Of a stretch of DNA of 20,000 nucleotides, positions 193 to 20,000 are shown in pieces. How positions within the stretch are numbered: position 1 is the stretch's first letter; the number at the start of each line of letters is the position of its first letter. Source of the DNA: Microthyrium microscopicum. Taxonomy: Eukaryota. The notes below the pieces were generated by a model, which was given only the letters and a program-made list of their open reading frames with translations, searched no databases and was not told the DNA's origin. Both the position numbers and the translations under genes were made by a program. The DNA is taken from assembly GCA_010405405.1 (NCBI GenBank), contig MU004231.1:3574583-3594582 (forward strand), written 5' to 3'.

Positions 193-595
193 ATGATGTC
201 TTCACTCTATGAGCCGAGAGCTATGGAAGGCGCTAGGAATCGCAAACAAAGCATGGCCGAACTTAAATTGCGTCGATTACAAGAGCTGGTGGCGCGATTG
301 AGAGAAGATTTGGAACGAAGGCGGATACCGGTATCAGAAGCAGCAAACGAGTATGTTCCATCGCCAAACTTGCCAAACTCATCTCGGATATTTCGCTAAT
401 CGTAGTATCTTCACAGTCTCATCAATTACACTAAAAAAGAGCCCAAAGATTACATGGTACCATCATTGTGGGGATACGTAAGTTTTTCTATACTCAATTG
501 ATATCAGAGTCAGCCTTACTGACCCATCATAGCCTGCTAGAGGCGAGGACCCATACACACCTCAACAAACGGGCGGCTGTTGTTCAGTAATGTAA
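193..595 (+). CDS. gpgA: Heterotrimeric G-protein gamma subunit (Ste18/GpgA family), 93 aa; exons 193-350, 417-477, 533-595
   Basis: KQSMAELKLRRL..L..RLREDLER in exon 1. Canonical introns 351-416 (GTATGT..GCTAAT..CAG) and 478-532 (GTAAGT..CTGAC..TAG) splice in frame to LINY..KDYMVPSLWG and EDPY.PQQTGGCCSVM*, ending in the CCaaX lipidation motif of fungal G-gamma subunits. Confidence 0.96.
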
Positions 596-1339
596 GAGAT
601 GCAAGAATGAGCGGATTAGATGGTCTTTTCGTCATCATCAAGGCGTTATGGGTCAGGGAAACGTTTTCAATCTCTTGTGTATTCCATCAAGTCTACTGGA
701 TCATTGGTTGATACGCTATAATACCCACGCATGCCCTACTCTGCTTCATATGGAGCCGGTTTACGTTCCGGTTGATAGCTGAATAGGTTTGGATTTGGCG
801 TCAAAAGCCGTGGGTGGCATTCATCATTAACGACTGGTTGGAGGGACCAGCAAAACTTGCGATCGGTGCATTTTCGATGTTCGATAAGAAGCAACCGTCC
901 GAGATTAATCGCAGTGTCAAACTCAAATAAATGTTTTAAATGCTAGTATTTCCTCAATTGTCATTGGTCGCTTACCAGATACCGACTGCAAAAAAATGAG
1001 TGGATTCGTCCGACCTTGTTTGTACTTTGTGTGCCAGAACGGTTCATGCTTTATTACTATTCCAGTACCGGAGGACAGGTCCGCTTCCTCAACATTGATA
1101 TTCCAGCACTTTAATGGGACAGGGTATGCATGTCAAGTCATTTACCTGCCCGTCATTGGGCCGGAAAAATCAACCAGGATATCGAATGTTTTAAAGTACC
1201 TACTACGTAGTGTCCTATTTTCGGCCTCGTCAATGGGCTGGCAAGGCTGGTCACTCCGCTATAAAAACAACCCGATACCGGGTTTATCAACAACTCCAAA
1301 CACTTACAACAACATAACAAGTCGAATAAATAAATCATC

Positions 1340-2405
1340 ATGGCACACAGAGCAAGCGTAGGAATCATTTCAATTGGGGAGATGGGTTTGGGTGTCGCAA
1401 AGCTCCTCATATCACAAAATTACCGCGTCTTGACAAACATCACAGGCAGGAGGTACGTACCGAACACATTCTGATATTCCAAACCACACTTCTCTCCAAA
1501 AAGAAACGCTTTCAAACTCTAACATCTGTCATAGCCAACATACCCAAGACCGAGCCAAAGGCGCCTCCGTCCAACTCGTCTCCTCAGACGCAGACCTAGT
1601 CCACCAATCCGACTACATAGTCTCCATCGTGCCCCCCAAAGACGCCCTCGCCACCGCCGACCGCATCGTCTCCGCACAATCCAGCAAACCACGTCCCTCT
1701 GATGCTTCTCCCCTGTACTATCTCGACCTCAATGCCGTAGCACCCAGTTCCGCGCTCGCCATTGCCGCGCGCTTCAAAGACTTGAGCTCCGCCATCCGCT
1801 TTGTTGATGGCGGCATCATTGGTGGTCCTCCAAAAGCACCAGCAGATGGCGGCGATGCTAGTGATGCAGCTGCATGGACGCGTCCGTCCATCGTGCTGAG
1901 TGGCAAGTTTCCGCTGGTCGAGGCACCAAAGGATGGGAAACATATGGCCGAGTTGCTGAACACGAAACATGTGGGTGATGATATTGGCGTCGCTAGTGGA
2001 CTCAAGTGCTGCTATGCGACGCTCACCAAGGGATTCACTGCGCTGGCAATCCAGAGCTATACGACGGCCGCACGGCTGGGTGTGCTGGAGGAGTTACGGA
2101 CTGAGATTCGTGCGACGAATCCGGCGAACGAGAAGAGGGCTAATGGTGGCCTGGTTGGCATGGCGCCGAAGAGTGGACGGTGGGTGGCGGAGATGCACGA
2201 GATTGCAAAGACACATCGTGAGACTGGTGGGTGGGCGGATGCGGGTGAGAAAGAGGGTGGAGCTAGTGGGATCTTTGATGGAGCGGCGGAAGTTTATAGA
2301 TATGTTGCGGAGGATACGGTGTTGGGGAAGGAACATAGTTTGAAGAGGACGAGGGGGACTACGGCGGAGGATGTGGTTGCTGCTATCAATGAGAGTAGGA
2401 AGTAG
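1340..2405 (+). CDS. 6-phosphogluconate/3-hydroxyisobutyrate dehydrogenase-like NAD(P)-binding protein with DUF1932-type C-terminus, 327 aa; exons 1340-1452, 1535-2405
   Basis: ATG at 1340 gives Rossmann motif VGIISIGEMGLGVA. Intron 1453-1534 (GTACGT..CTAAC..TAG) joins in frame to the 1629-2405 ORF with SIVPP, YLDLNAVAP, DGGIIGGPP, ASGLKCCYATLTKG and RWVAEMHEIA. Confidence 0.9.
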
Positions 2406-4353
2406 GTTGTGGGATCAGAGATCCATAGCGGCATGTAGTATCGATAAATAAGATAGTAACTACTAGTAGCTGGTAGAAACATGATTTTTTCTTACCACAA
2501 ATATGAGAACAGCGATATCAAGAGCGTGAATCTCACCACAGACGGCGACGGGCTCTGCAGACTGAGCCATAGACGACGAGGCCCTTTCACAAGGTCTCCC
2601 GCATGTACAATTTTTCATTCTAATATTCCCTTATAGTTTTGCCTGCCTCTTGTTGCTGCCTTTACTTGTCTGCCAATCGCTGGTCGATAGTCAAAGCACA
2701 TGGTTGCGGTTCAATGGCCGATACTAATGGGCAGTGAGCTGCTGTGGTATCCTCGCCGCGTAGCTGTTATGGTCACGGCAGTAAGACGAAAGGTTGATGG
2801 CTTTTCCGCTTTCTTGTCCCAACGTCGCTTCTTCGTCCGATGCGTGTTTGGGTTGAAAAACACTACACGAGCCGGCGCCGAGGACAAGATATCTTTGAGA
2901 AAGGCTGGAGATCGGTGGCCTTCTTCCAACGAGCGTTGTTGGATCTAGTCAAATGAGCTGAAAGTCCCAGGCCACGGGGAAGTTCTGCAGCGCGAAAACG
3001 ATGAGAACAGTTTTGAGAGGCAGATGAGTACTTCATTTCGTTGAAGTACGATATCGGCTTGGAAGGATCTCGAGTAGGCCCCTTTTTGAAGCATTACAAG
3101 ATCAGACTGTAGTTGCACCCACCAATCATCACTGTGACGGCCTGTGTTCGGTATAAGGCTAAAGTATAATCTTTTGGCTATGCGAGTATTCCAGATACAA
3201 CAAAATGATCTTAGTTATCGTTAGGAAGCTTAAGCTCGGAAGCGTCGAATGCTGCTTTTAGCTTTGGCATTCGTAAAGACTGCGATCGACGATTCCGTGC
3301 CTTGCAATTCAAGTTATGACGTGCCCGCCTACCTACTTGAGTAGGTCGGCAGGGCGATAATCAGCCTGATGGTGACCGTTATATTCGACATGGTATAAGC
3401 GGTCAAGAATACGGCGATGTATGGTTGGATATAAATAAACAAACAAACTTCGCCGCGGAGAACCCGAACCACCCTCTAGAGAAAGAAGGAAACACTACAT
3501 GGCCCTTTTATGTAAGTCAATTGCGCCAAAAGACTGGGAGTTCTCCCTTCATAAGGATGAGCTCCATAATACTTGAAGCCCAAGTATTTTGCTGGAGTGA
3601 GAAAGATCAGGCATAATGTACATGTTTGACAACAACACTACAAATTCCGAAACCAGCAAAACGTCGTATGGTTACCAAGTATCCCAAGAAACCACTTGGA
3701 CGCCAAAAAGTTGGCAGTGTCAATAGCTTGAATATAGAGTATTCGATTCAACCCTCAACATTTCTTTTACATCTCATTTTCTGGTAGTTGGTGTCTACAT
3801 GACAAAGAAATAGCCATCACTCCATGAGGTTCAAAGTTGTGGCACGAAGGTGACTAATTTGGAAATCCCCAGTGGTTTGAATAGATCAAGTCCAATCGTT
3901 CGTCCATTTCACAGCAAATACGCCGCTCAGTAGGTGGGAAGTCTCCAGTATAAGTCACAAAACTTGTACGTTAGGGCCAAAGAATAGTGGAAACATCTTT
4001 GCCCAAGGCCCAATAGCCAAAGTCCTTTTTCTCTCTTGCAGTGTGCTGAACAGCGAGACGTTTCATATCTTGAACTAAGCTCTAGGCCTGCCTCAAGTCA
4101 ACAATGCGTCAAGTTTCTACTCTTAACTGCCCAATTATTAAACATGACCAAATCTGATCGGCATCATTCGCCTGAATACACTTAGTACCCCAGAGAAGTT
4201 TATAGAATACCTAAATGTGATGTGAGAACCAGTCATCCTTTATCCACGACTTACAACCTGTCACTCCAGCGTCAGTGAGCCGAATTCTGGTCGACATGAA
4301 AATTTCTCTCATATTATTGTTGTGAATATCAACTATAGCCCTTGACAGTGGGA

Positions 4354-5610
4354 ATGTCTCTCATGAACGATACATTCACAGCTTGGAGGATACCCCTCTA
4401 TGTCTTGCTGGAATGGCCGAAAGCTGATCTCGAGCATCCTGTGATAAGGAGATGGTCAGTGCCGATTTATCTTGCGCTTTGGGCTCTTGGAACTGTGTGT
4501 CTACTGGGTCGGTCATATGCTAGATATCAAGGAAGAGCGGGGAGACTAGCGATAGATGATACTATACTGGGGATTGCCTGGGTAAGTTCAGTGACTGTCC
4601 ATGATGAACGAGCTGACAGGTCTTCAGATATTTGCCACGATATCAATCGTAACGAGCATATATGGTAGGCTTTATCAAGCAACTTCAACACATATCTAGT
4701 ACTGACATTAGGATTAGGTGTCTTGGGAGCTGGCTTTGATCGCCATGTATGGGATGCTCTTGTCTTCGGCGGCCGTCAAGGCGTGGTATGGCTATCGATC
4801 TCGTGAGATATTCTATCGCTAACGAAGCCACAGGCCGCATGGGTCCATGAACTAACCTTCATCATCGGCTCCTCACTTGCGAAAGCCTCTGTTCTTGTCT
4901 TCTATCGTCGAATATTTGCTCCAGTCAAATTCTCCACGATGAGATGGGCAGTCGACTTTGCATTATTCATCACCTTAGCTTTCATGACCGCCATATCCAT
5001 CAGCATCATTTTCGCCTGCTCTCCGGTTCATGCCTTCTGGGATGCGTCTAATCCGACCTACGGAGGGAAATACCATTGCTTCGATCGTCACATATACGAC
5101 CCTATCAAAGGCTTGATCAGCGTCATAAGCGACATCTTTTGTCTTCTTCTACCACAAATTGTTATTTCAAGGCTGAAGCTAGAAACAGGCGCAACATTAC
5201 GCTTGAGCATAATATTTGGGTGCGGGATCTTGTAAGATATCTCCTTCACGTTTTCACTGGGATGATCGCTGACAGAATGAAATAGAGCTACATTGGCTGG
5301 CATTGCTCGGACAGTAGAGTTAACACGACTCTACTCAGATCCATTGCGGGATCTTACATGTAAGTCCTAAAAATTCCCAAGCATCAACAAATGCTGATCA
5401 CGTACAGGGGTTGGACACGATGTCTTCCTTTGGGCAGAGGTAGAGATTCAACTGGGTATAATATGTGCTTCAGTCCCTATGATCACGACCTTATTTCGAC
5501 CTCCATCACAAGCAGTACAGGACATGATGAAGTCAAAATCGGCGGAGAGAGAAAGTCAACAACCAATAAATAATACCACTGTCCAGGAATTGTCAAATCT
5601 TAACCCATAA
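4354..5610 (+). CDS. PTH11-like fungal rhodopsin-domain integral membrane protein without CFEM, 335 aa; exons 4354-4581, 4628-4664, 4718-4785, 4834-5231, 5286-5359, 5408-5610
   Basis: Five GT..branch..AG introns splice to one 1008-nt open frame with family motifs WP..D..HP, R.YAR....LAIDD, FDRHVWD, KASVLVFYRRIF, C.PV.AFWD, SDIFCLLLP, DLTW and EIQLGIICASVP. Confidence 0.9.
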
Positions 5611-5657
5611 TGAAGTCGAAGGAACCTGAATTATTGTATTATGTATAAACCATGACG

Positions 5658-6513
5658 TTACTGGTTTTTAGCAATCAATTCTCCATTAGTAACCACATAC
5701 CATGCATCCTGAGTTGTCTGAAAGTCTTTCCACGCTCTTGAAATCCGTTGCATATCCTCCTCTTTTGCCATTCCCATGGAAACACAGTTATCATGAAACT
5801 CCGACTGTAATACTCGATCTGCCCACATCCCTATAACCCGTTAGCTCGACATACTCATGGCCAACGAATGACTTACCAGCCCAAAAGTCCAATCCTTCCT
5901 GATCCGCATAAGTCCAATTACTGCTAGTCACCGTAACATCACTCTGCTCAAACCCAGCCTCCCTCGCAAACTTCCTAAACATCTTTCCCGCCCCTGGATG
6001 TGTCCCCAAACGTGTCGAAATCCCCCAAAACAGCTCCCTAAACTCCACCAGCTCGGGCTTCTCCGGCCAATGTAGGAAGTCCGTCATATCCCGCACCGCC
6101 ACTATCCCTCCCTTCTTCGTTACTCGCCTCATCTCCTTCAGCGCTCTGACTGGATCACCTAAATGCTGCAACACCTGATGGGCATGAACCACATCAAACG
6201 TGCCATCCGGAAAGTCGAGCGCATACACATCGCCCGTGTGGAACTCAACGTTCGCCACGCCGCTCTCTTTGGCAAGGCTCGTTGCGTCCGCGATGACAAT
6301 GTCAGCGCGGTCAAGTCCAATGACGTGGCCTGAGGGCACACGGCTGGCGAGGTCAATGGTGATGTTGCCGGGCCCGCAGCCGACGTCGAGGATGGTAGTT
6401 GTTGGAGTGAGGTGTGGGACGAGGTAGGCGGCGCTGTTTTCGACGGTGCGCCATTTGTGGGAGCGGAGAACGCTGGGATGGTGGCCGTGGGCGTATTGGG
6501 CTTCTTCTGGCAT
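5658..6513 (-). CDS. Class I SAM-dependent methyltransferase (UbiE/Methyltransf_11-like), 269 aa; exons 6513-5877, 5830-5658
   Basis: YAHGHHPSVLRSHKWRTVENSAAYL, motif I ILDVGCGPG, FDVVHAHQVLQH, MRRVTKKGG. A 46-nt intron 5876-5831 (GTAAGT..GCTAAC..TAG) leads to GMWADRVLQSEF...ISRAWKDF...DAWY..GELIAKNQ*. Confidence 0.92.
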
Positions 6514-7046: not shown

Positions 7047-8543
7047 TCATGAAGGTACTGATGGTTTGTGAACGGATGGTGACTTCAGATTGTTCTCAAT
7101 CCAGCCGCGACCATCAATCTCATTTTCGGGAGAGACAATGTTCTCCATGCTCCATTTCCCGAGCACGCGGATGCCTAAAGAGCTGATATGTCCAGCCTCA
7201 TACATTTCGCATCCAGCCCAGCCTATCATAGCCGCATTGTCTGTACACAGAGCAATGGGTGGAGCGCAAATTTCGATGTGACCAAATCCTCTAGCTCTGA
7301 GGAGTTGTTGAATGACATAACGCAAGAATTTGTTGGAAGCGACTCCACCACTAAGGACTAAGGTCTTGGAAGGCGAACTACCATGGCTCTTCTCTTCTTC
7401 TAGAGCGAGAACAATTCGACTCGCAATTTGCCCAAAGGCAACTTTCATGGTTTCTTGCGCTAAACACCGAGCTTCGGCCTCTGGCATAAGGCTCGTTCGA
7501 TTTTGCTTGCTCCATTTTGACAGCGCTTTATCCCATCCTCGCTCAGCGATTCTCTGGGCTTGAGATTCAATTCCCGTGAAGCTGAACTCGGGTATGTTGA
7601 GCCTTGATCCTGCTCGAGAGATGGCGAGTGGGAGAGTAATATACCACCCATAGGACGTTGGACGCTTTGCTCGAGCTCTCTCTTCCGAAAGTGATTTTGG
7701 CGGATCGTAAGAGTAATCGGACGACCCATTAGGAAAGGCGAACTTTTCTAGGATAGGGCCGTATGATGGAGTTTTACTGGATGCTATGAGCTCCTCAGGA
7801 AGCAGAAATCGGCCGATCTTGTCAAGACAGTCTCCAATTGCATAATCTCCCGTGTTTGCTAGGATCTTATGGGTTACAAGATCCTCCGACCTTACGAGTA
7901 GTGTGTGGCCGCCCGAGACAAGAAGTGACAGAAATGGGAATTCTGGCTTGGGCGATAGGTTGGTGTTTGGAAAGTCTGCCTTCCCTGGCAACTCAGCATC
8001 CAATGCATTAACAAGCCTGGATGTCAAAGCATGGGCTTGCATATGATGTACTCCGACAAGAGGAACCTGCCACGCGACTGAAAGTCCTTTTGCTGTATGT
8101 AGTCCAGTATTCAGACTTGTCCGCATTCCGGGTCCTCGAGTGACTGAAATGAAATCCGGAGCTTTTCTCAGCGAGCTCGAACCATCCTTTTCAGATATTT
8201 CAATGCATCTTGTCGAAGAATTGTAGCCGTTCGCAGGGATCGCAGGACGTGGGAGGTATGGCAAGGCTTGATTAAGCAGTCCAGCAAGTGTTTTCTCGTG
8301 GCCTTCGAGGGCAACTATTGGATGGATGCCAAGCAGAGGACCTTGATCCGCTGTTATCCGCTGATTGAAATGTAGACGGGCAGCTGCGCCGTTCTTCTCG
8401 ACTATTGCGACGGCAGTATCGTCACAGCTGGTTTCGATTGCAAGAGTAAGGAGACCACGGCGCCGAATGGCGGAGGATATCGTTTGGACCAGAGTCCTGT
8501 GAAAGGCATAATGAGATGTCTGAGAGAGACGATAAAGCTTCAT
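7047..8543 (-). CDS. QRI7: Mitochondrial tRNA N6-adenosine threonylcarbamoyltransferase (Qri7/TsaD family), 498 aa, single exon
   Basis: LAIETSCDDTAVA, VTRGPGM, GVHHMQAHAL (metal-binding HxxxH), LLVSGGHT, GDCLDK, FSFTG, SGGVASN, LCTDNAAMIGWAG; basic/Ser-rich N-terminal presequence. First ATG is at 8543 (the ORF track start at 8546 is TTG). Confidence 0.95.
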   Translation of the reverse strand: MKLYRLSQTSHYAFHRTLVQTISSAIRRRGLLTLAIETSCDDTAVAIVEKNGAAARLHFNQRITADQGPLLGIHPIVALEGHEKTLAGLLNQALPYLPRPAIPANGYNSSTRCIEISEKDGSSSLRKAPDFISVTRGPGMRTSLNTGLHTAKGLSVAWQVPLVGVHHMQAHALTSRLVNALDAELPGKADFPNTNLSPKPEFPFLSLLVSGGHTLLVRSEDLVTHKILANTGDYAIGDCLDKIGRFLLPEELIASSKTPSYGPILEKFAFPNGSSDYSYDPPKSLSEERARAKRPTSYGWYITLPLAISRAGSRLNIPEFSFTGIESQAQRIAERGWDKALSKWSKQNRTSLMPEAEARCLAQETMKVAFGQIASRIVLALEEEKSHGSSPSKTLVLSGGVASNKFLRYVIQQLLRARGFGHIEICAPPIALCTDNAAMIGWAGCEMYEAGHISSLGIRVLGKWSMENIVSPENEIDGRGWIENNLKSPSVHKPSVPS

Positions 8544-8593
8544 CAAACGCTTGCAGTATCTATCGTGAAGATTGAATCAAGCAATTGCGACTG

Positions 8594-8614
8594 TGATACC
8601 TGATACCTGATACT
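8594..8614. repeat. Short tandem repeat TGATACC x3 upstream of QRI7
   Basis: tgatacc tgatacc tgatact seen directly. Confidence 0.8.
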
Positions 8615-8667
8615 GTACTTTTCACAGCTGCCCCTGCCGTCCATAAAACTGGACTCGGACTTATCTC

Positions 8668-8730
8668 AGTTCTCAGACCCTAACCCTACCCGTCCGCGGG
8701 CTCCCTCCGTAGGAGGGTCTAAGGCTAACT
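8668..8730. repeat. GC-rich inverted repeat/hairpin at the gene/AT-block border; candidate transposon terminus
   Basis: CTCAGACCCT (8672-8681) pairs with AGGGTCTAAG (8714-8723) with one RIP-type TG>TA mismatch; outer AGTT/AACT; inner CCCG-tccg-CGGG and CCCTCC-gta-GGAGGG. Confidence 0.65.
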
Positions 8731-9810
8731 TGGATCTTTTTAGTATGACGCGCTTCGTAGTTATTAGTAAATACCTATATTATTATAATTATGTCCTTAC
8801 TACTAATATATAAATATTTTTAATAATTCTACTATTATTATAATTACTATCTTTTTCTTTATTAATTCTATAAATTATATCTCTTATTAGAAATACGCAT
8901 TATAGAGAAGAGTCTTATAGAGATAACCTAATTTCTATATAAGCTAGGTATACCTCTCTTTAGTAATAATAGTAATAAAGATAGATTTATCTCTATAATA
9001 ATAAAGACTCTATATTTATATATCTCTAGTAATATAATAACTATAATAGATTCTATAAATACCTTAAGTAGGATTTAATATAAGCCTAATAATACTAAAC
9101 TATTAGGTTATTTATAATTAGTAATAATAATAATACTATAGTAAAGCCTAAACTTAGTTAAATAAAAGCTTACTTTAATACTAAAATATATTTAAGATTA
9201 AAAGATAACTATAAAATCGTTTTTTCTATTATAGGCTAGCTAAAAAGATACTTATAGTAATATTATTCTTAATAGTAACCTATATATTAACGTTATTACT
9301 TACTATAAGCTTTTAAAGGACGTTATAGAAGAGTTATTAAGTAATAGAATTTTACTAAAGTATTATATAGATTTTAGACTATAGGTAGAGTTTTATACCC
9401 TTATAAAACTTATAAGCTTTAACTACTTTAGTAGTAAAGTAGATAATATAAATATTAACTTTAAGAAAGCTATTAAGAAGATAAGAAATACTATACTTAT
9501 TTAGATAGCTTTCTTTTATAAACTTATATATAATTAAAATTATAAAATATATAAATAGAGTAATAAGCTAAGATAGAAGCTTATATATATAATTATAATA
9601 ATTATTTTTTATTAGTAGAGTAGAGAGATAAATAACTATTTAGTAGTAATACTTAGAGTCTATCTACTTAGGTTAGATATAAAGAGATAAATTATAGACT
9701 TACTAGTAGCTCTTAAAGTATATACTAGTTATAAGACTATACTAAGATATATAAAAAAGGTTTTAAGATAAGCCTTAGTATATAATAGTACTATACTTAG
9801 TATTAAATAT

Positions 9811-9920
9811 AAAATCTTATAAAATCTTTAAATATATTATAAAATTTTTATATATCTTATAATATCTTTATATATATTATAAGATCTTTATATATTTTAT
9901 AAGATCTTTAAAAATCTTAA
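9811..9920 (+). repeat. Minisatellite of 11 degenerate 10-mers (20-bp higher-order unit) inside the putative intron
   Basis: aaaatcttat aaaatcttta aatatattat aaaattttta tatatcttat aatatcttta tatatattat aagatcttta tatattttat aagatcttta aaaatcttaa. Confidence 0.85.
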
Positions 9921-11194
9921 GTTTATAACCTTAAAAAACCTTATATATTACTAATACCTAATATATAAAGAAATATTAGATAATATATACTAAACCGTTA
10001 GGCTATCCTATATTATAATAATATAAACTTTATATTTTATAAGTATAATAAGATAGTAGGTAATATTATAAGTATAGTAGCTATTACTACTACTATTATT
10101 ATAATCTATTTATTTTTACTTCTAAGAGGACTAATATAAGATATATATAATCTAATAAAGGAGTTTAACTAGAAATTAATATAGAAAGGCCTATTAGTAA
10201 AGGCTAATAGCTAAGAAGGTAAATATATTAAAACTATTAGCTAGTACCTTATTATAAATACTTTAAAACGTAGTATTCTAGATATTATTAAACTTTAGAT
10301 TATAAAGTATAAAAAGGATAAACACTAGCCTAGTATACTAAATATTAATATACTTATACTATATAAAATAAAGTTTAATTAACTTAGTACTATTATAAAG
10401 AATAAAGAAATAATAAATAGTACTTACTAAGTATATAATAAAATTTTCTTATAATATTTTAGCTTCTTAAAACCTCTAATTAATAATATAGAAGATATAG
10501 CCTTATTATTAGATATTATAGCGTCTATTTTATTCTCTTTACCTAATTCTAGACTAGATGCCTCTTTATCTAGTATAGCCTATTTATCTTTTAGCTAAAT
10601 ATATAGTAAGAGTTTATCTATCTATTATATTTCTAGCTAGGACGGATCTAACGTAGATATATTTAAGAATATATCCTTATCTAGCAGCGGCCCTAAAGAT
10701 AATAACTATAATAATAACTATAATAATAAGTAGATTAATATTAAAGATAATAATATAAGTAAGTTTAATAATAGTAAAATAGAAGAAGCGTCTAATAAAG
10801 AAGGTAGTATAAACATTAAGTCTATTAATAATATAAGTATATTTCCTAATCCTAGACGTAGTATTCCTCTAGTAGATTCTATACTAGTATTATTATTTAG
10901 TATCTTAAATATAGTTAGTAATAAAAACTCTACTAATAGTTTATAAGCATTAGATCTAAGTACTAAAATCTTTAGAAAGAGGCTATTTCTTATTTATAAT
11001 AATTAGTTAAGTATAAAGATTAATTACTCTATTAAGGCTAAGGCATTTAATAAAATATAACTATATAATTTAAGGAAGTTCTTTTATTTAGTTTTTAGGT
11101 AGTTCTATATATATATAAACTACTTCTTCTATATTATTTAAACCTATTAGGATTCCTCTAAGGTTAATATACTAGCTTTATATTCTATTATATA

Positions 11195-11207
11195 TAATAT
11201 TAGTATA
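11195..11207 (+). repeat. Left copy of 13-bp target-site duplication TAATATTAGTATA
   Basis: Identical to 18338-18350; the DUF6589-type reading stops right after this copy. Confidence 0.85.
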
Positions 11208-11289
11208 GAAGCATTATTATACTAAAAGATTAATTTCTTAGAATTATTCTATAAAACTATTATTATTAGATTCTTCTTATTAAGACTAT

Positions 11290-12970
11290 TATAATAGTAT
11301 AACTTTTAACTAGACGTAAGCAATAGCTAGCACTATAGAGATAGATAAAGATTTATAGTAGATAGCTATTATTACTATAGAGGCTACTTACATTAAAAAT
11401 AAGGCAATATAGAAACGAAAAGATAACCTAAAACTACTACTTATAAGAGTATAGAGAGAAATTAAAGTACTATTAGGAAGACTTATATCTAAAGAAGAGA
11501 ATCTAATATAACTATTCCTTAACTAGCTAATAGCTAATTTTATATAATATTATACATTCTTTGTTATAATATAAGACTATATTAAATAACTAGTATTCTA
11601 CCTAGCTCTAACTATAAATAAGGCCCCTTTACTAACGCGCTTTAAGGCGCATCTTAACTAAAAACTTAATATAATTATAAAGTAGATTACTAAGATTAAA
11701 ATAACTCCTAACTCCTAAGTAAAAGTTATAAAAGGACCTAACCTACTAATCCCTAACTAAAGAGCCTCCTTTATAAGCCTAATAGTCTAAATTAATATTA
11801 TAAAAGTAGTTAAAAATATATTAAAGGAAGATAAGTAAAATAGAGTAAAGTTATTTAAAAAGATTAAAGAAATTATTCTATAGATAATAGCTATTAAGCT
11901 ACTACCTAGCAAGAATATTAATATTATAATTAATACATAATTAGATAAAGACTATATCTAAAATAGGCTACGCTAAGTAGGCTTAGATAAGGTTTAAGTC
12001 TTATAATAAGACTATTTAGTAGAGATCTTAAGGGCTCTACTTAAATTAAACGTAGCCTATAGTAAGAATATAAATAATAACAAACTAATTAAAGAACTAG
12101 TTAATAGAAATAAGATAAAGTTTAAATACTTAAAGATAAGAGTAGTTTAATAGCTTTATAGAAGTATAGAGTATAAATAAATAAAAAAAGAACTAGAAAA
12201 GCATAAAAAAATACGTACTAAGGGATTACTTATATTATACTACCTAATAATAGTAATAAAAGATAAGGTTATCTAGAAAAAGTTTATTATTAGAGTAAAG
12301 GAGCTCTTTACTAGATTATATAACCTAAAATATATTACTAAATAATACTTCTATTATTAAGTCTAGAGCTATATATAAATAGCTTATACTTAATATAAAC
12401 TAAACTATAGCAAATATATAAGTAATTATAATACTAGGGACTATACTAAGATAAGCTTAGTCTAGTACTCTAATTATAAAAATAATAAGAAAGAAAGTAG
12501 GAGAGAGAAAGAGTAAGGCTAAGGATATTATATATAGTAAAAGAATATATATAAAGTATACTAAACCTACTTTAAGAATATAAAAGAATTTTAGGTAGTA
12601 AATAAAAGATATATAGAATAGATAAAAGCTATAATACCTATCTAAATTATACTAATCTAGCTTATAGATAATAATAAATATACTATAGTAAATAGTATAA
12701 AGAAAAGAAAAATAAGAACTAAGAACCTTAGAAGACTATTAGTATTATAAAAAGTAAAGAATAAGATATATAATAATCTAGTCTAGGGTACTTAGAGATT
12801 AATTATAAGTATATTTAACTTTAATAGAGGTAATAATAGCTTATAAATTATAAGAAATAGCGCCTTAAAAGACTAATAAAGAAATAACTATAAGAAAGTA
12901 AGATAAGCTATAAATAACCCTAGGCTAACCTCTAATAATAAAATAAGTAGAATCTAAATAATAAACTTAA
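11290..12970 (+). pseudogene. LINE ORF1 (gag-like) relic; start approximate
   Basis: De-RIP: AIK.LPSGDI (~11890-11920), QCF.CQ.WGH....C (12343-12387), CGKC...H.TRDC (~12406-12444), CSNC...H.AW....C (~12466-12552), all in one frame. Confidence 0.82.
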
Positions 12971-15900
12971 ATAAATAGTATTAATATTATATAATATAAC
13001 TATAAAAGATTAAATAAAAGAAAAGTAAAGCTATTCTTTAATTTACTAGATAATACTAAGTAACTAATTATAGTAGTTTAAGACTCTAGAAGAATTATAA
13101 AGTTAGGGGAAATATACTACCCTCCTAGCTATACTCTAATATATAACTAAGATAATTAATTAAAAGTATACTTTATAATAAGTAAGGTACTTAATATAAG
13201 GAACTAGTAAGTAAAATATTATAATTAATTTGTCTTAATACTATGCCTTTAGTATAAGTATATAATATTAATAATTATTAATATATATAGTAAAGGCTTA
13301 GTAATAAGTAATTATAACTATATTACTAAACGCCTAATACTAATAAAGATAATTAATAAGGCAAAAGAAGAGATCTTATTAGTAGAAGACTTTAACTATT
13401 ATTACTATTAATAAAAAGGCATAGTATTAGCTACTAAACCCTAAGTAAATATTTTACTTTATAATATAATTTAATAAAGACTTTACCTAGATATACTAAA
13501 AAGAGAGCTAATTTATAGATTGCATAAGGAAAAGAAAGTAGGAGTAGTAAAAATAGTAATTAACCTTATATTTATATCTTAATTTCTTTAAGAAAGACTA
13601 AAGTTCTATAACCTAGTTAATACCTAGGTATTAATAGAAGATTATATCCTAGTACTAATTTAGCTTACTCTAAAATAAGAGAAGTATATACTAAAAGTAT
13701 AGTATAATATATAAAAACTAGATATAAAATAATTTATTAAATATATAAATAATAGCTTATAAGATACTAAAAATATACTAATAGAGGCTCTATATAGAGT
13801 AATAATAGAAGTACTAGAGATTTACTACCTAAAAGTAAAACTCTTAAAGTAAGCTTTATATAGGTAGTTACCTATAACTACTCTACTAATATAGAGAAAG
13901 CACTATATAAGAAAAAGATACCTTTAGATAGAAAATAATTAGAATAAGTATATATATAAATTAGTTATAGCTTAGCTAAGAAAATCTCTACGCTAAGATA
14001 AAGTAATATCCTAGCGAACCTTTATAAGAAAGATTATAAAAAATTATAAGCACTATAAGAACTAAGGCTTATAGAGAATAAGTAAGTAAATAAAAGCTAA
14101 AGTAGGTAAACTAAAGGAAGACTTATACCTACTAATACTTAGATAGATAACTAGTAATAACTATACTTATAATAACTAAGGTAAGGTAAATATACTATCT
14201 ATAAAGTTCTTTTCTTAAACTAGGGTAGCAAACCTAAGTAATATAAAAGATACTATTCTACTCTTAAAACTAGAAATAGACTATAAGATAATAGTAAAAG
14301 AAATAAATTACGTAATTAGTAGCCTCTTAAATTATAAGGTAATAGGACCTATTAATATACTAAATAAAGTCCTAAAGGCTCTTAGGCTTAAGGCGTAGCC
14401 TAAAAAGAAGAATAATAATCTAAAACTAACAAAATTTAGTAAAAGACTAGTACCTATAATTAGTAAAATACTAATAAGTAATATAATCTTAGAATGCTTA
14501 AAGTAATTCTATATACTAGTACTAAAAAAGCTAAGTAAGAAAGACTACTTACTACTATTAGCCTATTAGCTAATTACTCTTAAGAATACTATAGTAAAGT
14601 TAGTTAAAAAGATTATTACTAATAGACTTACCTAACTTATAAAAGATAATAATCTACTACCCTAGAACTAAATAAAGGCTAGAGCAGAATAATTAACGCT
14701 AATAGTAATATAGCTCTTAAAGAGTACTATTAAGGTAGCATAGAAAGAAAATATAAAAGCTATAGTATTAGTACTTAGTCTTAACTTTTAAGAAGTATAT
14801 AATAATATTAATCTAAAGAGACTTCTTTATATCTTAGAGATAAAGAAAGTCCCCTAGTAGCTAATTAATATAGTAATAAGCTTTACTACTAATTATATAA
14901 CCTAAATTATATTTGCTAGGCACTAGAGCCTAGTAATAATAACTAATATAAGAATTCTCTAAGGATCTTTTTTCTTACTTATCCTCTTCCTCTTTTTTAT
15001 ATTAGAACTACTAAAATACTTCTAAGACATAAGTAATAATATCTTTAGATTTAGATTTATAGATAATACTATATTAGTTATATAAGATAATACTACTTAA
15101 AAAAACTATATAAGATTAAAAGAAGCTTACTAGAAGTATACTAACTAGGTAAATAGATATAGTATAAAGTTTACTCTTAATAAGTACTAAGTAATATACT
15201 TTACTTAGAATATTTACTACCTAGAAGTAGACTTATAATCTATAGTAATAGTAAATAGTATATTTACTAAGCTTATATTAAAGAGTATTAGAGTACTAGG
15301 TATATAAGTAAATAGAAGAATAAATTAGAAAGACTATATTAAAAAGACTAGAACTAAAGGATTTAAGCAAGTAGTAGTACTTTTAAGAATAGTATAGTTA
15401 AGATAAAGACTAGTTTTTAAAAAGATAAAGCTTCTTTATATAGTAGTTATTAGGCTAACCCTTATATATAGAGTATAAATATAGAGTCTAGAATTACTAT
15501 TCCTTAAGATACTAAAAGATTATTATAAACTACTAGTAATAGTTTAGAATGATATACTCTATAAGATAATAAGAAAATACTAAAGAACTTCTATTACTTT
15601 ATTAAATAAAGAAATAAGAGTTAAACTACTCTAGATAAACGCTATAGTTTTAGTAGAGAAATATACTAATAAGAATAAAGACTTAATAGTAATATAAAAG
15701 ATAAGCAAAATTATTACTAAAGTATACTAAGTAAACCTTCTAAGAAACTAGAGAATATTTCCTTAGTAGTAATAACTAAGAAGCTTAGTAATACTTAAAC
15801 TAGTATAGATATACGTAATTAAGATTATAGCTTAAGGAGTTAATATACTAAAGTAATAAAAGAAGAAATTAGAGATAAAGTAGAAGTAAGATACTAACTA

Positions 15901-16460
15901 TAAGTAAGTAATATAACTAATAAATAGCATACTATAAAAGAAAAAGAAAATAAAAACTAAACTAGAGTTAAAGATATCCCTAATTAGAGTATATTACTAT
16001 AAGCTCTAGATAAATACTTAAGTATAGCTTATAAGGACGTAGTAGCATACTACTATAGTATAGAGAATATTATAAAGTAACTAACTAATTAAGCTTTATA
16101 ATAGTCTTAATAAAGTATAAGTAATAGTGCTCTTCTTTATATAATTAAAAGTTATTAGACTTAATAATTAGCTATATAGCGTATAGGTACTAATAGTCTC
16201 CCTACTATAATACCTATATAGTTACTAGTAATAAATAGTTTACTATATATTACTAAACTACTTATAATATTATAAAGAAAGATTACTAAAATAAGTAATA
16301 ATACTAAATAAGGCCTATATACTCTCTAATCTAAAGAATACTTAAGTAGCAGCTAGATAGCTACTAAAAAGTAAAGCTCTTTAGTAATTTAGGCTAACTA
16401 AAAAGATTATAGAAATAAACCTTAAAGTACGTAGAGAATTACTAAGACTTAAAGATTCTA
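12971..16460 (+). pseudogene. LINE ORF2 (APE endonuclease, reverse transcriptase, C-terminal CCHC finger) relic; end approximate
   Basis: De-RIP motifs: I.QYNC..SN (12980-13015), IAVQ, LL.GDFN.HH..W (13376-13420), IDL.F, KA.GP..IPN..LK (~14337), VLKKPGK.DY..P.AYRPIAL.NT..K (~14520-14600), LLPWNQMGAR, LSLD...AYDN, GIPQGS..SPILFLF (14951-15000), FVDD (15056-15067), KFAPDKY, R.LG..D, CPCG...QTV.H.LL.C (16211-16261), ARW....G.L.QF.LA (~16350-16400). The motifs I checked share one frame. Confidence 0.93.
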
Positions 16461-16559
16461 TAAATAACTAACTATAATACTATAGTACTAATAGGCTAGT
16501 AATATATAATTATAAAGGAAATAACTAAGTCTAGGAACGTAATTAATTTTATTCTATAT

Positions 16560-17440
16560 CTATCTACTACTTTTTATTAAATAATAATACTACTCTACTT
16601 AATAATTAAGATATCTTTACTAATAAATTTATCTTTATGCTTTAAGCATAAAGCTCTAGCAAGATAGCTTATAAGTAAGCTAAATTAATAGCTAGTATAG
16701 CTATATTAACCTTTAGCTTCTTCTTCTTCTACTATACTAGTAAGGCTATAGTAGAAGTAAACTAAGCCCTATAGCTAGTAAACTTACTTACTAAACTCTC
16801 TATAACCTTTACTTACTTAGTAGCTTTCTTATTTATACTTAATAATATATACTTTTTAACGCTTTAATAAGAGTTAACTAGGTTAGCTATTACCTTATTA
16901 AAGGCACGTTAAAGGCGCTTACTTTACTCTTTTAACTTTACTAGTATTTTACTATAATATTAGAAAAGGCAAAAGATTAAAAGCAAAGATATACTTATAG
17001 CCTTATATTTAGAATATTACTCTTTATAATAAGAGTAAGGATGCTAGCTAGGGCTAGCTTAACTATAAATATAAGTAATTACTATAGTAAGCACGTTAGA
17101 ACTAACTAGGTACTTACTATTAAGTAACTCTATATAATAGTATAATACTTAAAGATAGTATAAATAAATTCTTATACTAAGGGTATATATAATTTATATT
17201 ATAATAGTTAATACTATATATAAAAAAATACTAAAAGACTTATAATAGGAGTTAAGATAGAATTAACTAATTTTATATCTAAGGATAAAGCAGTATTTTT
17301 AATATTTATAAATAAAGTAGTTTTTACTTTCTTTAGAGATAATAGAAGGAGGGTACCTATAGGTATAGAATATTTACTAAGTACCTAAAAATATAAAGAA
17401 GAGAAGAAAAGAAAGCCTATAGAGAACTTACTCTTAGAAG
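16560..17440 (-). pseudogene. Putative antisense intron-containing cargo gene (Cys6-like motif plus coiled coil) in the 3' region of the LINE insertion
   Basis: Minus-strand intron-like units at 17431-17385 (GTAAGT, polypyrimidine, TAG), 17117-17082 (GTAAGT..CTAAC..TAG) and 16998-~16950 (RIPed ATAAGT, polypyrimidine, CTAAT, TAG). TAY codons spaced Cx2C-x16-C-x11-Cx2C-x6-C, then a ~125-codon A/E/K/Q/L-rich exon. Confidence 0.55.
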
Positions 17441-18337
17441 AGAAATTAAGAAAAGTAAGAGGTATAATAAAAACTTAGAGAAAAAAAAGTAACTAAAACT
17501 ACGTAGATTTAAAATACTTTATACTCTAAAAGTAGACTATATAAACTATTAGAAACTTAGAAGTAGCTATTTAGTAGCCTATTATATAGTATTAAAGAGC
17601 GTAGATTAATAGAAAAAACTTAGCTAAAAGGTATTATAAATACCTTACTTAATAGGTATTAAAAGAGAGGGCTTAATATAGTTAAGAGCTATAGCAATAC
17701 TAAAGCCTATTAAGAGTAAAAATTAATTATAAAAACTTAGAAATACGTATTATATACGCTTATTATAAAACTATATAGAAAGTTAACTATATAAGGATAA
17801 TAGCTATAAGCCCTTAAAAAGAGAAAGATTAATAGAAACTTATTAAACTATAATAGTAAAACTTAATAATAAGGTAATACTAAATAGAAATAGGCGCTAA
17901 GAAGCTAGATCTAACCTATTCTAAGAGACGCTATAGCCTTAAGTAATTAAGTAATAAATAAGTCTTAAAAGGAAAACTAGTAATAGGAATAGTATTAAGG
18001 ATTAAGATCTTAGCGCGTAGTATAAGATCTATATAATATATAATATACTTAAGCTATATAAGGCCCTTAGTAGTTAGTAACTACTAGTTACTTACTATAT
18101 TAACCTACTAACTAGAATTCTTTTAGTAGGCTTATAGTTTATAAAGAGATAATATAAGTCCTTTTATTTAGAAGTAGTAAACTAAGAGGGTATTATAATA
18201 ATAATAGAACAAGGCTACTAGAAGGTAACTAAAGGAATACTATAAGTTTCCTTATAGGGGTTTTTCTAAAAGTAAGAGTAGCGTCTACATAGCCTATTAG
18301 CGTAGCTAAAAGATAATAAATAAGATTTATTTATTAT

Positions 18338-18350
18338 TAATATTAGTATA
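18338..18350 (+). repeat. Right copy of 13-bp target-site duplication TAATATTAGTATA
   Basis: Identical to 11195-11207; the DUF6589-type reading resumes right after it. Confidence 0.85.
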
Positions 18351-19450
18351 TAGGAATAAAGCTATAGAAAGTATAATAATACTTAAACCTATTAGGTTAT
18401 TTCTATCTTAATATAAGAATTTAGTAGTAGAGTCTTAATATTATTTTTATAAAGTTTAGACTAGAAAGGTTACTATCCTAGATATATTAATAATTTATTC
18501 TTTACTATTCTAGAACTACTTAAATTTTATATTAATAAGTTATCTATAGAATAGTTTAATAAGATTATTAAAGATATCTATTAAATAGCCTTTATAAGAA
18601 AAGCATAGAATAGGTATCTAAATAAAAGTAATAATATTAAGTTCTAAACTATATACTAGTACTTATAAGAGATTAAGTTACTCTTAACTATATAATATAC
18701 CCTTTAATATAGTAATATTAGACTTTTATACTTCTTAGTTAATTCTTTAACTATTTACTTTTATAGTACTAGTTAGAATAACTATAGAGATAAGATACTA
18801 TAGCTTAGATAGAACTTATTTAATATAAATACTCCTAAACTTTAAAGATTTATTCTAGCCTTAAGCTTAGTTAACTAAAAAGGCTATAAAAACTTTTTTA
18901 AGCCTATAGATCTAAGACTAGAGTATTTAAATAGTAACTATAGTAAAGATATAAAGTTATTTAGTAACTTAACTTATAACGTTAAAGTAATATTTAATAG
19001 AGTCTATCTTTATAATATATATATATATTATTTATAAGACATATTTATATATATATTTATATATAAAGCTAGTAATAAGTATACTAACGCTAGTATAAAG
19101 TATAATATATTCTTATTATACTAGAATTTAATTAAAGATAGCCTTATAAAGTCTTAACCCTAGTTAGTAATTAAGAACTATAGCCTATATTATAACTTAC
19201 TAGATATAAAGAGAATAGGACTTAATAAGCTTAATATTAAAGCTAAGTCTTTTAATTATAAAACTACTATTAGGCAAGATTATATAGAGAATAATATTAT
19301 AACTAGGCTTATTAATATTCTTAACTAAGACATTAATAGTAATAACTTAGATATATAAGAAGAGGTTATAATAGAGAAGACTATAAGTAATATATTATTT
19401 AATAAAGATAATTCTAGCGCATTTAAAGCTATAGAAGTTAATTTATAAAT
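18351..19450 (+). pseudogene. RIP-inactivated DUF6589-type gene, 3' part; end approximate
   Basis: De-RIP: W.R....QGF..RVL, D.EF....YLQE...L....AL..GDIGLL (~18630-18730), YFHG.GQ.NYG.EML (~18755-18800), PELQRFILASSLVN.KG....FKP.DL.LEHLN (~18835-18935), NSTHDV...FDRVCL, S.KHT, then an acidic tail. Confidence 0.8.
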
Positions 19451-20000
19451 ATATATTTATTTAAGGTTTCTACTTTAGTTATAATTTATATAAGGTTAAA
19501 ATTATAGTAGGATATAATAGGATCTTATCTATTATAATATAATCTAATTAATATTAGAAAATATTAGATAATATAAGATAATATTAGCTAATAGGATTAC
19601 GCTATTTAATTTAGCTTTACTAATAAATACTTTCTTATTTCTATAATAGGATTATTTTAATAGATAACTCTAAGCACGTCCTAGATATAGAATAGTATAT
19701 TAACCTTTATTATATATTAAATATAGAGGAGTTTAAAGTTATTATAATCTCCTATTTAAGTATTAGTTATATCTATTTATTAATTTAGACTCATTCTAGG
19801 TTAGCTTAAAGTATAGAGATAAAAGTAATTTTATACTACTAGGCAAACTACTATTATCTATATTAATAGTTTAAATTATTATCTTAGCCTTACTTATTAT
19901 AATATAGGATTCTCTATAAGCCTATAAGGTAATATATAGAATAATAAATAATTATATTTTATTTCGTATTAGTTCTATAATATTTTAAGTTTTATCTAAG

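Follow-up and report, generated by a model that had tools for sequence, protein, structure and literature searches.

A window of 20,000 nucleotides of Microthyrium microscopicum (the whole stretch of DNA analysed, corresponding to G000:C2:3574583-3594582, where G000 is the 37-Mb assembly studied and C-numbers denote its contigs) holds a stop-ridden gene of the DUF6589 type next to an ordinary QRI7/TsaD-type gene, and the question it raises is whether this is a damaged host gene or part of a mobile element and, in the latter case, of which kind and size. A first-pass annotation, made from the letters alone, had proposed a repeated DNA transposon with a KDZ/Dileera-like transposase, interrupted by an insertion at 11208-18350. 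The gene was found to belong to a multi-copy unit of about 30 kb that has transposed whole at least eight times; one copy, now dead, has its left end in the window. The unit is very likely an autonomous DDE transposon of the Academ superfamily, with AcademH-like as its working designation.

The repeated unit, its ends and its copies

Near position 8750 the GC content drops from about 48% to about 20%, CpA and TpG vanish and TpA rises, from which a block altered by repeat-induced point mutation (RIP) is taken to begin at about this position. Independent searches of the assembly with 8700-11207 and with 18351-20000 led to the same seven other loci, in all of which positions 11207 and 18351 are adjacent; the junction is exact to the base in four (e.g., C14:34844|34845), while the alignments end 5-24 bases early in the other three. 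The halves thus join after removal of 11208-18350, as had been proposed. The joined halves were compared with the one unmutated copy, C6:1228813-1258780 (29,968 bp, 47% GC, no N), which has both terminal inverted repeats (TIRs) and an exact target-site duplication (TSD), and whose transposase protein (1062 aa) is referred to as P0001. The alignment of this copy with the joined window spans 4186 bp, broken by two small gaps, and C>T/G>A changes account for 1086 of the 1123 differences; of the 1063 transposase codons of the window, mapped on P0001, 73 are stops. RIP is seen in every assembled copy except the one on C6. Between 8661 and 20000 of the window, 355 of 416 CpG and 558 of 580 CpA sites are mutated, compared with 23% of CpC and 16% of CpT; the near-CpA rate at CpG suggests methylation-assisted deamination in addition to RIP.

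Homology among eight copies begins at window position 8661 and extends for about 30 kb. The element starts with the inverted repeat TTATCTCAG (8661..8669, + strand) and closes with its reverse complement, i.e., the ends read TTATCTCAG…CTGAGATAA with a TIR of 9 bp. Flank comparison identified the left copy of an 8-bp TSD, ACTCGGAC, at 8653..8660; the right copy, ACTCGGAT, which differs by one C>T, follows G000:C2:3662504 (87,922 in the count of the extended window). A pattern search of the assembly yielded nine left and ten right ends. All eight two-ended copies are flanked by an 8-bp TSD (six exact, two with one C>T) at unrelated sites, the match on C6 using the outer of two left ends next to a 10-N gap. 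Duplications of 9 or 10 bp were tested on all eight copies and rejected, as the outer bases differ. The base immediately outside the left TSD is G in seven of the eight copies, a possible sign of a weak target preference. Of the two extra right ends, one comes from a copy on C11, for which a search for the left part gave nothing; the other belongs to a 723-bp internally deleted relative on C1 (L096:1501-2223) with an 8-bp TSD of its own, GGTATAAG. This relative has the same TIRs, GC-rich ends and a RIP-like middle, its left end recurs in further contigs, and it may be a member of a family of miniature inverted-repeat transposable elements.

The hairpin described earlier as terminal does exist (CCCTCC-GTA-GGAGGG, 8703..8717) and is retained in all left ends and confined to them, but it is subterminal, the true end being 8661. 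A RIP-altered motif of 18 bp at 8717..8734 (+ strand), which agrees in 18 of 18 positions, inverted, between the left and right ends of C6, is a candidate binding site for the transposase. A telomere-like unit, CCCTAACCCT, at 8681-8687 occurs in all nine left ends found, having been part of the search pattern.

Five RIP-mutated copies lacking large inserts are between 29,585 and 30,625 bp long; aligned with the 29,968 bp of C6, they account for 28,678-29,954 bp. The window copy spans 79,262 bp because it contains a LINE-like (long interspersed nuclear element) insert and a further block of about 43 kb; of the 29,863 bp of element sequence, 24,766 can be recognized in it, with N runs between. 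Transversion patterns group the window copy with that on C14 (and C13), and C5 with C2_048 and C2_162, both in the left 4.2 kb and in the right 11 kb. The same sub-lineages at both ends argue for repeated copying of the entire unit, each time from one of several parents. With eight copies bearing TIRs and TSDs the gene is part of a multicopy DNA transposon, and the case that had been named as fatal to this proposal, a single-copy host gene reached by leaking RIP, is excluded.

The transposase, the helicase and the relatives of the element

On C6 the transposase gene occupies 217-3645 (+) in element coordinates and has three exons. In the window, mapping on the intact copy placed the RIP-mutated exon 1 (aa 1-34) at 8877..8978 and exon 2 (aa 35-284, a helical N-terminal region according to the model described below) at 9028..9777. 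Exon 3 is split into a first part with an acidic low-complexity insert at 9969..11207 and a second part at 18351..19448, which runs to the stop and contains R-x-G-D (816-819) and Y842 (mapping and domain match), all on the + strand. The single frame claimed for the two halves is that of exon 3 (9969-19448), to which the two upstream exons have to be added. A 20-bp tandem array within intron 2 (9814..9913) is shared with the intact copy. From 19449 to 20000 the window contains element interior, recognized by homology to other copies, which continues past its border.

All motifs listed at first pass are present in order in P0001 (YDN 300, NEGT 429, GDQL 628, GWFH 661, YMN 666, GDIG 818 and, in the C-terminal part, GQNNYG 838, LVNWEG 870 and DLGLEHLN 884), and the window shows their RIP-altered forms (YNN, NKEI, NN*L, R*FY, YIN, SNIR, S*NNYR, LVN*KG and DLRLEYLN). 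The first-pass assignment to DUF6589 likewise held: PF20231 matches the window half with E 4.8e-9 (39.4 bits) and the C6 copy with E 2.8e-54 (209.7 bits for P0001, above the curated cut-off of 27). In the alignment made for P0001 (88 rows, i.e., 88 of 152 proteins, picked by coverage), the most conserved residues are D301, N302, G628, D629, H664, D819, Y842, D884, E888 and N891, with D301 conserved in 96%, D629 in 94% and E888 in 99% of the aligned rows. In the first part of exon 3 of the window copy, D301 (10017-10019) and D629 (11001-11003) are now Asn and H664 (11106-11108) is now Tyr; D884 and E888 lie at 18909-18911 and 18921-18923 in the second part.

The AlphaFold model of P0001 (predicted template modelling score 0.75, disordered acidic insert at 466-594) predicts an RNase H fold into which a helical domain is inserted. 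An exhaustive fold search with the model returned Hermes (Z 8.8, root-mean-square deviation (rmsd) 7.1, 309 residues aligned) and the P element (Z 7.8, rmsd 6.2, 356 aligned) at the top, followed by Tn5 (Z 7.1, rmsd 5.2, 194 aligned) and ISCth4 (Z 7.1, rmsd 5.2, 255 aligned), with integrases, RAG1 and other RNase H folds below; the top rows are all DDE enzymes, in support of the transposase core suggested earlier. The transposase sequence itself gave a single match in the PDB, at E 4.6.

Convergent with the transposase gene, a stop-free frame of about 1090 codons (25,937-29,215, - strand) of the C6 element encodes a RecQ-like helicase recognized by the DEAD (E 5.8e-13) and Helicase_C (E 1.1e-7) models; its best PDB matches are WRN, RECQ5 and RecQ. 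Three Cys-rich, DUF3716-like open reading frames (ORFs) of 554, 226 and 415 aa lie on the minus strand, and tandem arrays of 80-98 bp are present in the middle of the element. The first-pass surmise of an extension beyond the window with further genes is thus confirmed. A homologue search with the 554-aa ORF returned only itself, and a further ORF of 217 codons gave no match. Among the eight ORFs scanned, a set from which spliced genes could escape, no host-type cargo gene and no match to PF18758/KDZ/Plavaka, hAT, P or DUF3435 models was found.

The contigs of run X5, whose record carries no RNA label, were treated as RNA solely because they skip GT-AG introns. They skip intron 1 of the transposase gene and, on the minus strand, at least nine introns with GT-AG borders, one of them within the transposase gene; spliced antisense RNA (L048:3269-9931, G000:C6) covers much of this gene and the DNA downstream of it. 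The joined antisense exons contain a longest stop-free frame of 184 codons with a late Met and without sign of a conserved protein. Another piece skipped in the antisense direction, 3669-3729, has a good donor but ends in TG.

A scan of metagenomes for related transposases gave 108 loci, 80 of which were retained (several from the same sample or near-duplicates); a convergent helicase is present in 33 of the 80 and a homologue of the 415-aa ORF in 14. Terminal repeats were searched in 27 of the 33 helicase-bearing loci. Five of these, from two assemblies, have TTATCTCA ends and an 8-bp TSD and measure 8.6-10.0 kb; the end pair was not found in the other 22, where many contigs are short, and five of those 22 gave other, ambiguous inverted repeats. 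The span from transposase to helicase is 3.6-10.7 kb in the 27 loci as against about 28 kb in the C6 element, and the C6-family element is about three times as long as its 8.6-10-kb metagenomic relatives. Two relatives of about 5 kb (L176 and L177) carry long perfect TIRs of another sequence, from which it follows that the end structure varies within the group of elements combining DUF6589 and helicase.

The assembly itself contains nine further diverged DUF6589 relics, five of which were fetched (C12, C16, C9, C3 and C2:1.40 Mb; L206-L225); all five start with TTATCTYAG and they comprise a sister DUF6589 and helicase family of about 20 kb plus a third relic. Three copies of the sister family close at 20,005, 20,462 and 28,106 bp with 8-bp TSDs containing one transition each. 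The right ends of the sister elements on C3 and at C2:1.40 Mb were not found within 40 kb; for the latter there were two candidates, both in AT-rich DNA, which were put down to chance. As the sister family is also large, large size is a property of two families of this assembly.

Several observations bear on the present activity of the intact copy. The 95 bp before its inner left end are identical to C11:684537-684631, where the site is assembled empty with a single GTGCTCCT (C11:684624-684631 = L107:1588-1595). Read contigs were placed over the first 8 kb of the C6 element; the depth inside it was 1714-1885 versus 1024 in the flank for run X3 and 164-202 versus 98 for run X1, contig depth not being a strict copy number. 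Run X6, whose share is small, did not enter the comparison. Past the shared end, no differing letters were seen between the implied copies, except at one position.

Placement and competing explanations

In supplementary file 1 of PMC5751038 the Academ profile (RNase_H_Academ) shows DN at 3-4, gdq at 190-192, w..p..g.fH at 214-223, R.gd at 375-378, Y401 and D450/E454. Compared by eye over 185 of its 465 positions, the profile has its motifs in the same order as P0001, and the spacing agrees from W/F to H (9) and from R to Y (26). The Academ-ordered motifs together with a RecQ-like helicase point to AcademH. AcademH is reported to have a TSD of 9-10 bp (PMC10045372). Here it is 8 bp in eight of eight copies, the 723-bp derivative, three sister-family copies and five metagenomic elements, one of which (L131) can also be read with a TSD of 10 bp and ends one base shorter. 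With 8 bp against the reported 9-10 bp, the family is filed as an AcademH-like variant of Academ and not as a proven member of AcademH. Giant Academ elements, Academ elements with an 8-bp TSD or a link between DUF6589 and Academ were not found in the literature covered, to which Kojima 2020, a possible overlap, did not belong.

The following points weigh against this account. The TSD length departs from that of AcademH; the Academ match is an unscored one by eye, made with the Academ profile alone and over 185 of its 465 positions. Z values of 7-9 at an rmsd of 5-7 are middling for a fold search, and Foldseek gave no match at E<=0.001 against the PDB. Two of the Cys-rich ORFs match DUF3716 below the Pfam cut-off (E 0.0014 and 0.0058), and the DUF3716 clusters that the Atlas places next to the 554-aa and the 415-aa ORF, at 0.87-0.89 (<0.9), are leads only. 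Conflicting transversion patterns between the two ends for C13 and C2_197 imply that copies have recombined or converted. As to activity, only a left junction was observed for C11, and X1 and X3 are one sample.

The same anatomy might belong to a separate DDE lineage, KolobokH-like or unnamed, that acquired a RecQ helicase independently. Besides the deviating TSD and the by-eye profile comparison, such a lineage is favoured by the fact that in fungi KolobokH, too, has a RecQ helicase next to its DDE transposase (PMC9587614); it is nevertheless improbable, for the same paper gives the Kolobok TSD as the 4-bp TTAA, as opposed to the eight unrelated 8-mers observed here, and five motifs of the Academ profile occur in order, two of them with exact spacing. 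A KDZ/Dileera-like or Plavaka transposase, the first-pass proposal, is very improbable. A DDE core of RNase H type that combines a conserved His with a helical insert is widespread among DDE superfamilies, as the fold search indicates, and would suit it, but none of 28 family proteins matched the KDZ, Plavaka or CxC Pfam models at E<=0.01, P0001 is without an N-terminal Cys cluster, and its motifs follow the Academ profile; a scan of the assembly with PF18758 (KDZ) also gave no match, its control being silent too.

Two further explanations leave the superfamily aside. If the real element were 9-10 kb long, the size of its relatives, the 30 kb would have arisen by later nested repeats or by gene conversion of RIP blocks and not by transposition of the whole unit, for which the tandem arrays in the middle and the presence of nested blocks of about 43 kb in two of the eight copies might be adduced. 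This is very unlikely: six copies on five contigs, each flanked by a separate TSD, are colinear over about 30 kb, the middle part is shared by the unmutated copy, in which read depth is uniform over the part covered, and the sub-lineages agree at both ends. The other explanation is about present activity alone and leaves the transposon anatomy as described: the C6 copy could be a domesticated, immobile single locus of an extinct family, the additional junction being an assembly artefact. A single intact copy was assembled, C11 was assembled empty, the extra left end adjoins the 10-N gap, and spliced antisense RNA lies over much of the transposase gene, all of which lends this some weight. Against it, C6 retains both TIRs and an exact TSD, and the depth is about 1.7-2 times that of the flank, with two implied copies free of differences past the shared end except at one position; domestication is regarded as the less likely case. 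The junction is more plausibly read as another intact copy, almost the same in sequence, that sits at C11 in most nuclei and is either collapsed in the assembly or a mosaic new insertion; this would speak for recent activity, and the intact C6 copy is probably still mobile. The confidence is not higher because of the single sample, the unseen right junction and the fact that contig depth is no copy number.

For the preferred Academ-type transposon, the following course of events may be envisaged. The transposase would bind the short TIR and the subterminal motifs, cut both ends and join them to the target with an 8-nt stagger, presumably by a D301/D629/E888 triad, by analogy with hAT and P elements. 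Cut-and-paste with gain of copies by gap repair is the likelier route, the other being copy-out as in IS256-type elements. The helicase might aid the processing or repair of a donor or target intermediate, the DUF3716-like proteins could be element-borne accessory regulators instead of host cargo, and the antisense RNA may control the element. A more far-reaching interpretation is put forward only tentatively, namely that the family is a distinct ascomycete sub-lineage of Academ (characterized by the ends found here, the 8-bp TSD and DUF3716-like genes), in which the helicase lifts the size limit of DDE elements, with 20-30 kb reached in at least two families of this genome, and which is at present mobile in a RIP-competent fungus, controlled by spliced antisense RNA of its own, as a recombinase-free route to giant elements beside Starships. 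If this is true, a live copy is available for testing a giant DDE lineage.

Nested insertions, host site and comparison with known systems

The insert in the transposase gene (11208..18350, + strand) is a LINE-like repeat of about 7.14 kb, unrelated to the transposon and recognized from its other copies in the assembly. It is flanked by a 13-bp duplication, TAATATTAGTATA, at 11195..11207 and 18338-18350. About 21 copies were counted among the 21 scored of 68 candidates, several of them 5'-truncated, and the five fetched copies show, by eye, TSDs of about 11-14 bp and a TA-rich tail. Translated with X at stops, the insert matched neither Pfam nor the PDB, and a comparison with the intact reverse transcriptase (RT) frames of L109/L110 also gave no match; RT-like motifs were recognized by eye against the consensus. 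Judged by structure and motifs it looks like a Tad1-type LINE, and its insertion is later-looking than the element. Its 3' part contains a T-rich, skew-reversed stretch (16460-17300) with runs like CTTCTTCTTCTTC. The nested block of about 43 kb lies at 25,953-68,673 of the extended window (G000:C2:3600535-3643255); its first kilobases match the start of the block of similar length in the copy at C2:0.48 Mb, which sits at another position of the element. The block may itself be another giant element.

The QRI7/TsaD-type gene (7047..8543, - strand) lies outside the element with its ATG 117 bp from the element end, and the ATG of a SNF1-type kinase gene follows 158 bp beyond the right end. The two genes run away from the target site, which places the element in a short divergent promoter. 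One insertion has moved QRI7 and SNF1, whose ORFs both appear intact and which shared a promoter region of about 270 bp, apart by 79 kb of RIP DNA (remaining flanks: window 8543-8661 and G000:C2:3662504-3662663). The window also contains ordinary host genes: at 213-595 a short spliced one with resemblance to a G-protein gamma subunit, at 1340-2405 a DUF1932 dehydrogenase-like gene, at 4354-5611 one for a rhodopsin-like membrane protein and at 5791-6513 a SAM methyltransferase.

DUF6589 has 1254 representatives at E<=0.001 and has been named as a possible virulence factor. Identified as an Academ-type DDE transposase, the domain would gain a function, and genes that carry it would call for masking or for annotation as transposons. 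With an intact copy that is transcribed and perhaps active, the part played by the helicase in Academ elements, so far unexplained, can be put to the test. The family represents a eukaryotic DDE element of a fungus that moves as a unit of 30 kb, a size otherwise linked to Starships.

Among known systems, the C6 family resembles AcademH in its Academ-profile DDE transposase, a helicase with DEAD and Helicase_C domains, TIRs and low copy number in a fungus (for AcademH, low copy number in ascomycetes is stated in PMC10799480), and differs from it in the 8-bp TSD, the length of about 30 kb, the three DUF3716-like ORFs, the tandem arrays and the spliced antisense RNA. REP9/Styx of Zymoseptoria tritici is likewise a dothideomycete TIR transposon with DUF3716 genes but is unrelated; according to PMC8232023, it measures 7.9 kb and has an IS3EU/integrase-type transposase, a 6-bp TSD and a 43-bp TIR, and the word 'helicase' does not occur in the text of that paper. 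The TSD of hAT and P elements is 8 bp. With these (Hermes in the case of hAT) the family shares the best fold matches, an RNase H core with helical insertion and this TSD length, whereas sequence identity is 9-11%, no hAT or P Pfam model matches, and the helicase is borne by the element. Starships are giant multi-gene elements of ascomycetes with a mobility gene at the left end, a tyrosine recombinase captain, and host-type cargo. The C6 element is also giant and multi-genic with its mobility gene at the left end, but that gene encodes a DDE-fold DUF6589 protein, the TSD is 8 bp, and no DUF3435 match was found among the eight ORFs scanned.

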